A program made the translations under genes and the position numbers. The notes beneath the pieces were generated by a model. That model did not search any database. It was not told the origin of the DNA and saw nothing but the letters and a program-made list of their open reading frames with translations. Below, in pieces: positions 5,801-45,306 of a stretch of DNA of 64,000 bases. The stretch's first letter is position 1, and each line of letters begins with the position of its first letter. The stretch comes from Eledone cirrhosa (Eukaryota). The DNA is taken from positions 312,666,001 to 312,730,000 of the forward strand of contig OZ024741.1 of NCBI GenBank assembly GCA_964016885.1. Reading direction: 5' to 3'.

Positions 5801-6078
5801 ATATATATGTATATATATATATATACATATATGTATATTTTTAGACATATATGTTTATATATATATTTCGTTTCTGAATTTGTTTAGCAAGATTCTTTTT
5901 CTGAAATCGTGTGTTGAAACCGATATTGTTATACTTTGTGATGGTCATGTTGCCAATAAGAAACACACGCACCAGTTGCTTTCACTTCAATTTATTATAA
6001 TAAATTTATAATAAATTTATAAATTTATAAATTTCTGGTTGGTTGGTTGGTTCCACAACCAGATAGTTGTTTATATAT

Positions 6079-6123
6079 AGTCATAGTTCTTTCGTCACAC
6101 ACTCTGTGACCTCTTCAGTGACT
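6079..6123 (-). ncRNA. Minimal HHR in PLE1 pseudo-LTR
   Basis: AGTCA-CTGAAGA-g-GTCACA-gagtg-TGTGAC-GAAA-GAAC-TA-TGACT. Confidence 0.88.
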
Positions 6124-6324
6124 GGGGATTCCTTTCTTTGTTTCTGTGCCTCTCCTTTGTTCTGTCCTACGCCATTTTGTTTCTGTGTGTGAGGTTGTGT
6201 GCTCAGTCTGTGCATGCGCCACATCCGGGTGTCTGTGTGTGTTTATGTTCATTTATTTATTTGTTTATTTACATGTTACTGGTTGGTTGTTTGTTCTATG
6301 TGTGTGTGTGTTTTCATTTTGTCC

Positions 6325-8965
6325 TTAATTGTAAGTTGTGATGTTGCTGTTCCACTCATATTTTCTATTTAATTTTGGTTGTAATTCTTTTATGTTTATA
6401 GCTTCTGTAATTTGTCTAAACATTGCGTCTTTTCTGTGTGTAGATTCTATTTTTATTTCTATGTTCTCTAATTTACCCTTGTGTTCTATTTTAGCATGTT
6501 GGTAGAGTACAGATGATTCTTTGTTATCTTGAAGGTCTCGCCAGTGTTCAATTATCCGTTCCCCTACACTACGGGCTGTCTCACCTATGTACACTATATT
6601 TTTGTCTCTACATTGTCCTTCAGTACATCTTATGCTATACACTACACTTCTAGTTTTACAGTTAATATGGGGGCTTATTTTACAGGTTATACATTTCTCA
6701 TCTATACATGAGGGTCTTTGAAAAGGGTATGTCTTGCTAATAAGTGTTTTTACGGAGGTACCTGGTCTTTCTACTATCTTAATATTGAGTTTATGTTTAT
6801 TTAGGGCCCTTCTAAATTTGTAAGCTAGTTCACCTCTAGGGGTTGTATCGATGAACATTACACTCTGGTATTTATTGCTAGCATACCATGAGTTTATTCT
6901 ATTAGCCTTGTTCCTAGTTCTTTCTATTCTATTCCAAAATTTGCTCCTATATAAGGGGCAGGTCCCATTTATGTCATTATTTACCATTTTTTCCCATTTG
7001 GTTCTGGCTCCTCTATACACTCTGATTTTATCTCTCTGATTGTATCCAGAGAACTGCATACGGTGGATGAAGTGTTGTATGTGTCTCTCTAGTTCTTCGG
7101 GGTTGCACATGCGGGACACATTTCTCATCACCCGTACCAAATCCGCAATCAGTATGTTGATTTTGGTATGGTCCGAAACGGCCGAGTTTCGGTGGATCAG
7201 ATGTTTGGAAGTCATGGGTTTGGCATAATGGGAATGGAGGATTTGTTTTTTGTTGTTAATGGTATCTAACCAGAGCTCTGTGTCTATTACAGGTAATCGA
7301 TGGTTGGGGTGTTTACTTGGGTAGTCTATAGTAACTCTAATGCTCTGGTGGATGGAGTTTGCTATTTGCTGGATGCTTTCCATTGTGTTTTTCTCTAGTT
7401 CCTGACTGTTCTCTAGTGGGGGTGTCTTAACTACGATGTTTATATCATCTACGTAGCGGGAGTACATTATCAGGGTTAAGGGGTCTTCTAATTGTTCTTT
7501 AAGTTTAAGTTTAAGTCTACTGTCCCACCATACCATGAATAAGTTAGCTATGTCGCTTGCAATGCTAACACCAATGGCTGCTCCTTCCTCTTGGGCATAT
7601 GTTTTTCCATTAAATTTGAACATATGTTCCTTAAGGGTTGGTTTTATGCTGGCCCCTACCGCATGTGCAATCATTTTCTTCAGTTCATCGTGGTTTTCGG
7701 GTGTCCGTATGGCTCTGGTCCATCCGTTCCATCTATCTGTGTTTGTTTTCTTGGCCATTGAGGTAATGGTAGTTGGTCTGCCTCTTGCTGGTCTTGTAGG
7801 GCACAGGTTGCTAAGGTCATTTGTGTCTAGGTAATTATTACTATAGGTAAGCCTAAGTAGGAGTCCCAGCTCACTGGTATGAATCCCACGGAACACAACC
7901 TTGCTCTCACTGATCATTTCTACGCATTTCTCCACAGCAAAATCCACGTCAATAGATGGATACAGGGACACAACATCCATACTGCCTATTATGCGGTTTG
8001 TTAGGTCCCCAGATCGGTTACTCACGCTGATTCTGCTGAGGAGGTCCTCCGTGCTGTCACATACATCTGAGGACATTTCAATGATGGGGCGTATAATCAG
8101 GGAGAGGAAGTAGAACAGTTTGTAGTTACTAGCAATGTTAGCTCCACAGACTGGCCGTGTTGATGGTCCCGCGACAGGGTCACAGCCCGTTTTATGGTCT
8201 TTTCGAAGCCCATACAACGCCGGCACGTCATTGTTCCAGGCCTGGAAGTTGTTGGCAGTCCTTTCGTTTGGCTGCATTATATTCGTCCACATCACCATAT
8301 GGGCATTGAGGGCTTTTTCTCTATCCTGATGCTCCTGTGGTGTTACCTCTCTTGTGTTAGTGATGTGGGGTTGCATTGCCTGGATGTAGTTTGGCAGGCT
8401 GTCAACCGACGTTCTGCCAGACTTGTCTGTTGGAAAGCATGCTATCTCTCCATTACGTGAGCGCTGCATGAGCTTACGCAAGCCATTTGCAGATTTTTCT
8501 CCCAGTTGCTGGGCCTCAATTCTATTATGCTTCTTGCGATATTGTTCTATAATATTTCTAAGTTCGGATCTAGCTATACTAAATTGTGCTTCTGTTTGTT
8601 CATCGACCTGCGACGGCAATTGCGTGCGTTTGTTAAATGGTAAAGTCGTGGCGTAGACTCGTCGCAGGTCGAATGATTTATCGGAGGGATTATAAAACGT
8701 AGAGTTCCAGGCTGCTGCTTTATGTGTACTAATGCTATTGTTATTGTTAGTTGTGTTGTTTCTATTTCTATTTCCACCAACAACCTCATGGTTGTTTCTA
8801 TGTCTCTCACAATTACTCCTGTCTCTTTCCACTGGCTCATTGTTGTTATCTACCCTATTTTGTGTGAGTGTGTGTTCGTCTTGGTTATTCTCTTTGTCCT
8901 TAGTCTCCCTTCTCTTTTTAATCCTATTACTTTCCCTTATTTCTGTGATTTCTGTGCTACTGTCA
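6325..8965 (-). CDS. Penelope-like reverse transcriptase + GIY-YIG endonuclease (5-prime truncated)
   Basis: TDKSG, LYGLRKDHK, RPV, MDVVSLYPSI, RYVDDI, CxxC, VVYSIRC...YIGETAR; frame stays open upstream of the tracked GTG (8832) to the inversion junction. Confidence 0.9.
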
Positions 8966-10009
8966 TGACAGTAGCAACATACTGATTGCGGATTTGGTAC
9001 GGGTGATGAGAAATGTGACCCGCATGTGCAACCCCGAAGAACTAGAGAGACACATACAACACTTCATCCACCGTATGCAGTTCTCTGGCTACAATCAGAG
9101 AGATAAAATCAGAGTGTATAGAGGAGCCAGAACCAAATGGGAAAAAATGGTAAATAATGACATAAATAGGACCTGCCCCTTGTAAAGGAGCAAATTTTGG
9201 AATAGAATAGAAAGAACTAGGAACAAGGCTAATAGAATAAACTCATGGTATGCTAGCAATAAATACCAGAGTGTAATGTTCATCGATACAACCCCTAGAG
9301 GTGAATTAGCTTACAAATTTAGAAGGGCCCTAAATAAACATAAACTCAATATTAAGATAGTAGAAAGACCAGGTACCTCCTTACAAACACTTATTAGCAA
9401 GACATACCCTTTTCAAAGACCCTCATGAATAAATAAGAAATGTATAACCTGTAAAATAAGCCCCCATATTAACTGTAAAACTAGAAATGTAGTGTATAGC
9501 AAAAGATGTACTGAAGGACAATGTAGAGACAAAAATATAGTGTACATAGGTGAGACAGCCCGTAGTGTAGGGGAACGGATAAATGAACACTGGCGAGACC
9601 TTCAAGATAACAAAGAATCATCTGTACTCTACCAACATGCTAAAATAGAACACAAGGGTAAATTAGAGAACATAGAAATAAAAATAGAATCTACACACAG
9701 AAAAGACGCAATGTTTAGACAAATTACAGAGGCAATAAACATAAAAGAATTAAAACCAAAATTAAATAGAAAATATGAGTGGAACAGCAACATCACAACT
9801 TACAATTAAGGACAGAATGAAAACACACACGCACATAGAACAAACAACCAACCAGTAACATGTAAATAAACAAATAAATAAATGAACATAAACACACACA
9901 GACTCCCGGATGTGGCGCATGCGCAGACTGAGCACACAACACACAAACAGAAATAAAATGGCGTAGGACAGAACAAAGGAGAGGCACAGAAACAAAGAAA
10001 GGAATCCCC

Positions 10010-10054
10010 AGTCACTGAAGAGGTCACAGAGTGTGTGACGAAAGAACTATGACT
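10010..10054 (+). ncRNA. Minimal HHR in the inverted PLE1 pseudo-LTR
   Basis: Same motif as 6079-6123 on the opposite strand. Confidence 0.88.
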
Positions 10055-43832: not shown

Positions 43833-44002
43833 AACACACGTATTAATTGCTTACATTTCTAATGTGAGTTATGAAGGATGTTGATTTTACGTTTTACATA
43901 AATATTTAAGAAAAAGACGTAGTTCAAATTATAAGAGAAGAACAATTTGTAGATTCAAATATTTTCATCCAACATTGAAAATATTTTCAGAACATTATTA
44001 AA

Positions 44003-44189
44003 GGCGGTGGATTGGCAGTATCGGTAGAGGGTCGGACGCCATGCTTTCCAGCATAGTTACGTCCCTTTACGATCTGAGTTCAAATCCCGCCGAGGTTGAC
44101 TTTGCCTTTCATCCTTACGGGGTCGATAAAATAAAGTACCAGTAATGTACTGGGTAATTGCTGGCCTTGTGCCAAAGGTAGACACAATT
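44003..44189 (+). mobile_element. tRNA-derived SINE
   Basis: Full-length copy of the same family. Confidence 0.92.
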
Positions 44190-44574
44190 GTTAATTTAGC
44201 GAAAATTTATCATACAAGTTATTATGTCTATGTTTGCACAATTGTAAAGGAAAAGATAACTCCAATATTATTTGCTAACCATTAAATTTGATGAATGATT
44301 TTCTTAGAAAGTATGTATTTCCGGGTCAAGTGCCACTGCCCGGGCCGACCAAGGTCCTGTGAGTGGATTTTATAGACCGAACTAAAAGCCCGTCGTATAT
44401 ATGTATATATGTCTGTGTGTGTCTTTGCATTTGTGTTTGCCCTCCCACCAATACTTGTTGGTTTGTTGACGTCCCCCTAAATTACCAAGGTGATGCTCCA
44501 GCATAGGCGTAGTCTAGAGACAGAAAAAAGTAAAGTATATATATATGTCTGTGTGTGTGTGTGTGTGTGTAGAA

Positions 44575-44978
44575 GAGGGGTCTCAAACTCAAGAACTCAA
44601 AAGGGCCATTATGTCCTGGAGGAGAGGAACAGTGGGCCAAACGTGGTGGTGGGTGATCATTTTCACCAGTTATAATCATTTCTACTATAGGAACAAGGCA
44701 TGAAATTTGGGGTTTAGGGTTCAGTCGATTGCATCTCTCCTAGTACACAACTGGTACTTAATTCATCGACCCCAAAATAATGAAAGTTAAAGTTGAGATC
44801 AGTGGAATTTGAACTCAGAACGTAGAAACGGAACAATCCAGTTGAGCATTTCGCCAGATGTGCTAACGATACCACCGGCTCACCGCATTATTTTCACCAG
44901 TTATAATGCAATATGAAATATTGGTTCTACCCCGAGCCACAGAAAAGTAGTTCGCGGGCCGCATGTTTGAGCCTCCTG
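44575..44978. mobile_element. Degenerate hAT-type MITE containing an older SINE (44677-44889, minus) with 18-bp TSD
   Basis: Ends AGGGGTCTCAAAC and GTTTGAGCCTCCTG; ATTTTCACCAGTTATAAT at 44659 and 44890. Confidence 0.65.
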
Positions 44979-45091
44979 TTAGAGATAGATAGATAGATAG
45001 ACGTGTGCCAAACACACACACATATATTTCTTACTCTCTCTGTCCCTCCCTCTTTCTCTCTTCATTTATATATATATATATATATATATAT

Positions 45092-45306
45092 ATGGGAACA
45101 AGTATGATCCCGACGGTAGAGCTCAAGCCGTTTCGAAAGCTATTTCTGGACTAACAAAAATATTTTTAGTCCAGAAATAGCCGTCGAAACGGCTTGAGCT
45201 CTGCCGTCGGGGTCATACTTGTTTCTATTACCCACTCTACTACCCTAAGTATTGAGTACTTTGGTGCGTTACGGTCCATCTGGTTCCTTACCACAATTCC
45301 TTCGTT
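45092..45306 (+). repeat. Family F fold-back fragment (arms 45092-45154 and 45166-45228, plus 78-nt tail)
   Basis: Homologous to 17352-17493 and 20487-20684. Confidence 0.85.

Follow-up and report, generated by a model that had tools for sequence, protein, structure and literature searches.

Protein-coding Penelope-like elements (PLEs) and tandem repeats without an open reading frame (ORF) lie close together in a 64,000-nt window of the Eledone cirrhosa genome (contig OZ024741.1; the window is the whole stretch of DNA analysed), and both raise the same question: how does an insertion come to consist of two head-to-head arms, each abutting (TA)n, of which one stops at a fixed internal point and the other continues as a short tail? 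The tailed end is termed distal (D) and the tail-less end proximal (P). The mechanism of inverted, one-side-tailed PLE insertion is still called unresolved in print (PMC8557442, PMC11167929; published work is cited here and below from excerpts). For the PLE families (PLE1, PLE2, PLE3) and the repeat families F, B, H, and C considered here, twin priming is a fairly likely answer: the two arms would be two first-strand complementary DNAs (cDNAs), started at two fixed sites, probably on one RNA, at a (TA)n target.

Results

Pairing of insertion ends

The genome comprises 3.0 Gb in 1,796 contigs. The 30 best-scoring loci were taken for each of three queries (PLE1 and F, both including the tail, and the PLE1 ORF start), and likewise for each of B, H, C, and PLE3, queried without the tail. 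Added to these were 11 extended loci, together with contiguous DNA totalling 890 kb that was chosen blind to content. Each search scored 40 of 252–2,253 candidates, so that the loci are biased to young copies near the sequence of the window. Counts of paired ends cover six families (PLE1, PLE3, F, B, H, and C), PLE2 loci being kept apart.

Among 166 deduplicated head-to-head insertions, both ends were classifiable in 116, and 112 of these combined one end of each kind (DP), the others being DD (three) or PP (one). Independent choice of ends would give DP in a fraction of at most 0.5. At loci not selected on the tail, DP was found in 74 of 78 insertions with two classifiable ends (binomial P = 5e-18). 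A family-blind scan for inverted segments between TA runs, covering the 890 kb and the window (0.95 Mb), returned 37 unique cases; 34 were asymmetric, with offsets of 35–126 nt and 18 tail families, and three were symmetric. At PLE2 loci, a further six head-to-head insertions read by eye are DP and show three distal sub-sites.

The common geometry of inverted arm, fixed tail, and (TA)n target, which an earlier note had proposed from the window, is therefore shared by the families genome-wide and lies far beyond chance. End positions plotted over genomic copies fall at two preferred 3′ end points per family and are not random. Both end sites also work alone, since single-arm insertions end at D in 43 cases and at P in 23 (elsewhere in 11). 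Given the pairing rule, it is likely that copying of a single RNA starts from both cut DNA strands, at two fixed points.

Inverted repeats beside long (TA)n are error-prone, which would suit an origin of the inversions as assembly or library chimeras. This is scarcely credible for base-precise asymmetric ends at 112 independent loci, the more so as the two arms of an insertion differ by 1.3–4.7% substitutions on average, as in aged genomic copies, and the same layout has been published in other animals.

Microhomology at the end sites

At 12 of 12 end sites, the modal junction has 2 nt or more in common with the TA run, and the summed microhomology is 40, against 20.3 expected (permutation P = 2.2e-4; the distal references for F and PLE3 were one copy each in this run and were later confirmed in 12 and 11 loci). 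Per site pair, the values are 4/4 for PLE1, 2/6 for PLE3, 3/3 for F, 3/2 for B, long/2 for H, and 2/3 for C. Tandem PLE1 copies, in which the tail forms the beginning of the ORF, carry AATAT|CG at both end sites. Longer TA tracts upstream in family C are seldom used as ends; therefore, position as well as pairing matters.

Relationship between the two arms

Among 76 insertions of the coding families, the 5′ reach of the two arms is level in 46; in 15, the tail-less arm exceeds the other by more than 25 nt (for example, at loci L069 and L071 and in the window copy of PLE3), and in another 15 the tailed arm is the longer by this margin. These lengths bear on a fold-back or self-priming route, in which the strand made at the outset serves as template for the inverted arm, with stopping or resolution at the proximal point. 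Both self-priming on an antisense template (PMC3846280) and a tail left by endonuclease resolution (PMC8557442) have been proposed. On such a route, the tail-less arm should lie nested within the tailed one. Where the tail-less arm extends further 5′ (15/76), copying of one arm from the other is impossible, so fold-back is excluded for those insertions, and hence as the sole route. The 23 single arms ending at the proximal site also speak against it. Short F copies, whose arms start within 25 nt of each other in 37 of 40 cases, fit fold-back, as do a small palindrome at the PLE1 junction of the window (approximately 8960–8985) and the arm concordance described below, which this route predicts. 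On balance, we regard fold-back as unlikely.

The two arms of an insertion agree at 397 of 427 subfamily-diagnostic non-CpG sites, compared with approximately 60% on permutation (P = 0.0005 for PLE1, F, and B; P = 0.026 for PLE3); families H and C are without diagnostic sites. None of 134 tight junctions joins different families. Junction offsets of −1 to −8 were found in 54 of 112 cases. A rolling-circle test on 18 tandem arms gave similar unit and arm divergence, and does not discriminate.

Arm concordance and the lack of mixed-family junctions favor one template. The same data constrain dual priming, in which an asymmetric dimer would load two RNAs, one per target strand, with a different start site for each subunit. 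Dual priming yields the same one-of-each rule and dispenses with strand displacement, and for L1 the two modes have been described as indistinguishable (PMC2837659). With matching arms and families that never mix, it needs both RNAs to come from one locus, even for the ORF-less family B, for which a mixed RNA pool is expected. It is a rather doubtful alternative to priming at two sites of a single RNA.

Coding families

Self-comparison and direct reading of the window bear out the element positions and (TA)n flanks given in the earlier note, together with most of its tail lengths: 57–60 nt for PLE1 (5866–10210; approximately 58 claimed), 66–70 nt for PLE3 (31776–32860; approximately 70), 78–80 nt for F (20487–20681 and 45094–45306; 78), and 71–79 nt for B (10775–12360; approximately 78). 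The tail of family H (32886–33545) measures 35–41 nt, shorter than the approximately 45 nt claimed. The window copies of B and H were assigned by tail length, the note having given no coordinates for these two.

The tailed, distal-end arm of the PLE1 insertion (5866–8974, minus strand) contains a 5′-truncated ORF, the 3′ untranslated region (UTR), a hammerhead, and the first codons of the next ORF, and is followed by the inverted tail-less, proximal-end arm (8975–10210, plus strand). The tail itself (5866–5922, minus) encodes approximately codons 10–29 of the ORF and has AATAT|CG at both ends. The ORF remnant (6325–8971, minus) includes reverse transcriptase (RT) motifs DKSG and YVDD, a CX4CxxC linker, and a GIY-YIG region with internal cysteines. 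A minimal type I hammerhead motif lies in the pseudo-long terminal repeat (pLTR) at 6084–6118 (minus), with a second copy at 10015–10049 (plus), and is intact in 88 of 152 PLE1 matches of at least 150 nt. A second, tailed PLE1 copy (16334–16704, minus) consists of the pLTR only, and its 41-nt inverted arm stops before the proximal site.

The PLE2 insertion (20720–22643) comprises a tailed arm (20720–22345, minus), approximately 70% identical to PLE1, and an inverted tail-less arm (22360–22643, plus); its hammerhead core is present, with a weak stem I. The 41-nt tail and the ending of both inverted arms at GTATAACAATAT are as the earlier note had them. The distal end is not the single point implied there: 17 distal ends of the PLE2 subfamily, read by eye, fall at +41 (four), approximately +44 (six), and approximately +55 (seven), the window copy using the shortest of the three sub-sites.

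PLE1 and PLE2 each have a single ORF with an RT and, at its C-terminus, a GIY-YIG region (DKSG, YVDD, CX4CxxC, and C..C..YIGET motifs), and the N-terminus of the PLE1 ORF was recovered from tandem copies. Pfam matched RVT_1 in the PLE1 ORF below the cut-off (E = 8e-4), and no GIY-YIG match was found in that ORF. By the motif definitions in PMC8557442, both families appear to be Neptune/Nematis-type. The PLE1 ORF has 127 residues between RT motifs A and B (window, approximately 7560–7970; locus L067, 5850–6300), which seems unusually long, and an Asn/Thr/His-rich low-complexity stretch in its N-terminal part, like the Asn-rich inserts of Adineta PLEs.

In PLE3, the tail-less arm is the longer one (31776–32517, minus) and contains a decayed, apparently Hydra-type GIY-YIG C-terminus, while the tailed arm (32518–32860, plus) carries a minimal hammerhead at 32728–32757. 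Partial tandems, an inverted 5′-truncated copy, and a one-sided tail are thus all seen in coding PLE families.

Family F is represented in the window by two short fold-backs (20487–20681, minus, left arm tailed; 45094–45306, plus, right arm tailed) and by a single tailed copy with a longer 5′ part (17100–17493, plus, start approximate). The earlier note had taken F for a non-coding hammerhead repeat mobilized in trans. It is instead the pLTR of a Hydra-type PLE: of 15 loci chosen from the ORF side, 12 have the F tail directly upstream of a PLE ORF with DKT (DKTG) and RWR motifs, and upstream, longer F copies extend into a GIY-YIG C-terminus. In 82 F matches, searches with canonical, compensated 3–8, or one-mismatch cores found no hammerhead. 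With a coding parent, F needs no mobilization in trans. The PLE3 tail likewise directly precedes the ORF at 11 of 12 loci, and both end sites of F and PLE3 are in the 5′ UTR, 90–150 nt before the ATG. PLE3 has the RWR motif and, at locus L047, a CxCX5C linker (CSCRKPEAC). The Hydra clade is defined by DKT and RWK-like motifs, a CxCX5C linker, and (TA)n targeting (PMC8557442); judged by such motifs, not every one of which was seen in each family, the F parent and PLE3 fit this clade. A canonical hammerhead is present in the PLE3 pLTR. A "Nematis" label for the two was dropped, as the motif definitions fit the Hydra clade instead.

Short copies have preferred 5′ starts. Among 78 F copies that came from outside the F query, 56 begin 121–160 nt before D, at a TTAGTC/TCAGTC sequence that we take to resemble an initiator motif, and are likely the result of RT run-off at the transcript start. 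Many PLE1 pLTR-only copies (L002–L028; window, 16334–16663) start 317–326 nt before the distal end. This point, 17 nt before an ATGGCG that is presumably YY1-like, is a probable transcription start.

ORF-less tandem repeats

Families B, H, and C are dispersed ORF-less tandem repeats with units that span a few hundred base pairs. Their longest ATG-initiated ORFs are 32 (B), 33 (H), and 67 residues (C), and none matched any of four PLE proteins in tblastn searches. The B insertion of the window has 2.4 units of a 554-bp repeat (10775–12090, minus, tailed end at 10775) and an inverted tail-less arm (12084–12360, plus). Family H has a tail-less arm that begins with the end of the previous unit (32886–33218, minus) and a tailed arm (33219–33545, plus) with a 320-bp unit. 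Family C, which was added beyond the families first listed, has a tail of 55–59 nt and units of 422–431 bp; one copy with a tailed end (13036–13947, plus) includes a canonical minimal hammerhead (13635–13665) and a SINE-like (short interspersed nuclear element-like) interruption (13152–13340). A three-unit array (14249–15618, minus) has its tailed end at 14249 and a short inverted arm (15535–15618) with a non-standard end point. Units at 14246–15536 are 100% identical over 869 nt, whether by rolling-circle copying, recent duplication, or an assembly effect.

An intact canonical minimal type I hammerhead core is present in 49 of 89 matches to family C. Family H carries, with full stems, a U3-A8 variant core in place of C3-G8 in 32 of 57 matches (33341–33390 in the window), a variant that we take to be active; its Rfam HH9 match has E = 0.5. 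No hammerhead was found in any of 70 family B matches, searched with the same cores as F; Rfam gave no ribozyme match, and a relaxed core scan gave no fold. The label of hammerhead repeat that B had been given is thus unsupported, and B, for all its retrozyme-like behavior, is not classed as a retrozyme.

These families could be amplified pLTR satellites, whose geometry was inherited from old PLE ends or made by DNA-level events. Family F, which seemed non-coding and yet proved to be a pLTR, gives this idea some substance, and tandem satellites derived from pLTRs have been discussed (bioRxiv 10.64898/2026.07.22.740005). The copies themselves make it very unlikely. Those of B are young and dispersed (97–98% identical across many chromosomes); B, H, and C together show varied 5′ truncation, precise ends on (TA)n, and DP in 36 of 38 insertions that could be classified. 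Copies that read through the distal site almost always enter the next unit (among top continuations), and only 4 of 293 matches lie near a same-strand PLE ORF. It is likely that B, H, and C are mobilized in trans by PLE proteins, so that the proposal of trans-mobilization survives for the ORF-less repeats and falls for F.

A candidate link to one clade is a RCTC..GAGY hairpin located behind several end sites (F-P at +5, F-D at +3, PLE3-P at +4, B-P at +3, and B-D at +4 or +5). It follows B-D in 13 of 13 read-through copies. The pattern, which was chosen after seeing F, PLE3, and B, also occurs near the start of 5 of the 18 family-blind tails, against 0.05 expected from shuffled sequence. As B shares this Hydra-type hairpin behind both of its sites, it is likely a passenger of a Hydra-type PLE protein.

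Other elements in the window

Further TA-flanked fold-back or direct-repeat elements occur at 15621–16290, 18126–20463, 23110–24049, and 24086–24341, two of them with hammerhead-like cores. Beside PLE1, an 897-residue open frame (2889–5582, minus) with Pfam Exo_endo_phos_2 (APE-type endonuclease) and RVT_1 domains represents a near-intact long interspersed nuclear element. A zf-RVT match at 40546–41133 (minus) belongs to a 3′ fragment of a different non-LTR clade, in which a PD..D/E pattern is presumably a restriction-like endonuclease-type motif. A decayed DNA transposon (28006–30609) with 14-bp terminal inverted repeats and an 8-bp duplication (CAATAGGG) lies inside an old RT remnant and looks hAT-like. 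The Rfam scan of the window gave mostly microRNA noise on TA repeats, with one HH9 hammerhead among the matches listed (2199–2270, plus; E = 6e-6, under the gathering score), outside the PLE and repeat elements. The SINE-like repeat of approximately 190 bp that interrupts family C at 13152–13340 is found in about ten other places, and a 60-bp-type minisatellite (50950–52360) yields spurious long ORFs.

Discussion

Proposed mechanism

The 3′ ends of both arms point outward; therefore, both can be read as first-strand cDNAs, one per target strand. In the twin-priming reaction envisaged here, the GIY-YIG nuclease would cut both strands of the (TA)n target, and the PLE protein, probably a dimer, would hold two RNA sites approximately 40–80 nt apart. 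Each target 3′-OH would pair over 2–6 nt with a UA patch and then be extended. Over the doubly copied stretch of RNA, the RT that follows would displace the cDNA ahead of it. The two cDNA ends would join, often through an overlap of 1–8 nt, and gaps would be filled, the tail corresponding to the distance between the two RNA start sites. Short F and PLE1 copies would likely be cis products, for which RT starts in the 5′ pLTR and runs off the 5′ end of the transcript. The earlier note came close to this in suggesting first- and second-strand priming or nicking sites for the two end points, which are better read as two RNA start sites.

A stricter form of this mechanism is conceivable, and is put forward tentatively. 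Twin priming at fixed sites may be obligate, with one ribonucleoprotein engaging two short UA patches on a single RNA, in the manner of telomerase, for pairing with the two cut strands of the (TA)n target, and copying the same RNA stretch twice. ORF-less repeats, even the hammerhead-less family B, may then parasitize the machinery by presenting both start sites and, behind each, a Hydra-type hairpin.

Several observations weigh against twin priming or its extension to the repeats. Of the 166 insertions, 50 stand outside the DP ratio, with an end elsewhere (33), at a locus edge, or in read-through into a tandem copy; some ends scored as elsewhere are P ends of divergent F subfamilies shortened by alignment. 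Five cases are tail/tail or none/none, namely the three DD and one PP counted and a family-C-like fold-back in the window with both arms tailed (12527–12870, strand undefined), an exception to the pairing rule that was caught by eye and missed by the counting script. The longer-arm count of the tandem families (25/36) is weak, as a long arm may contain an internal tail. Arm concordance would equally fit two RNAs of one source locus, or gene conversion between arms. The microhomology is short and inflated by AT-rich context, and the junction is ambiguous at the proximal sites of H, C, and B. In excerpts of the biochemical study of a Poseidon PLE, start sites are reported to have neither homology to the cut DNA nor a difference between strands (PMC11167929). 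No common RNA fold spans the tails (z of −3.5 to +0.35), and PLE1, C, H, and PLE3-D lack the RCTC..GAGY hairpin. Apart from a 23-nt match between B and F, no parent PLE for B, H, or C was found among the sampled loci.

Comparison with known systems

Tail and inversion are already published, and so are two RT start sites and the link between retrozymes and PLEs. A one-sided, optional tail on an inverted pLTR, its overlap with the first codons, and trans-integration of pLTRs have been described (PMC3846280), as have one-sided tails of 30–40 bp, TA targeting, the Hydra clade, and non-autonomous Chlamys elements (PMC8557442). The literature searched, which was without subscription journals or the Penelope papers of 2004–2006, did not yield the one-of-each rule, the arm-length test, or the TA patches.

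The insertions share with endonuclease-positive PLEs (PMC3846280, PMC8557442) the head-to-head arms, a tail on one arm, a pLTR with a minimal hammerhead, and (TA)n targeting, and in PLE1 and PLE2 also a tail over the first codons. They differ in tail length (35–126 nt, compared with the 30–40 nt described) and in the position of the F and PLE3 sites within the 5′ UTR, unlike the layout in the excerpts. A tail called optional in print is here paired one-of-each in two-armed insertions.

The closest biochemical parallel is the Poseidon PLE PAc (PMC11167929), for which cutting and extension of both strands in vitro, two internal RNA start sites bounding the tail, and a predicted dimer have been reported. 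Two tail-bounding start sites, extension from both cut strands, and an AT-rich target are common to both systems. No homology between site and target and no strand difference are reported in the excerpts for PAc; in contrast, each site here has a TA patch, and each arm a different site. The quantified one-of-each rule points to fixed-site twin priming and is testable in the existing in vitro system.

Twin and dual priming were defined for L1 (PMC2837659), with which the present insertions share priming of cDNA by both target strands and inverted arms joined internally. In L1, however, the second primer acts at a variable internal site, with internal deletion, whereas here the second site does not vary and both arms copy one and the same stretch.

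PLEs have been proposed as the mobilizers of animal retrozymes (PMC7229834, PMC7761336, bioRxiv 10.64898/2026.07.22.740005). Like animal non-LTR retrozymes, C and H are ORF-less tandem repeats of 320–430 bp with a type I hammerhead motif; H differs in its U3-A8 core, and B has the footprint without a detected hammerhead. The published argument, as excerpted, is made from co-occurrence and pLTR similarity, whereas insertion footprints are used here. That retrozyme-like repeats use PLE proteins is supported more directly by a shared footprint than by co-occurrence. Before short (TA)n hairpin repeats such as F are annotated as non-autonomous, a coding parent needs to be looked for.

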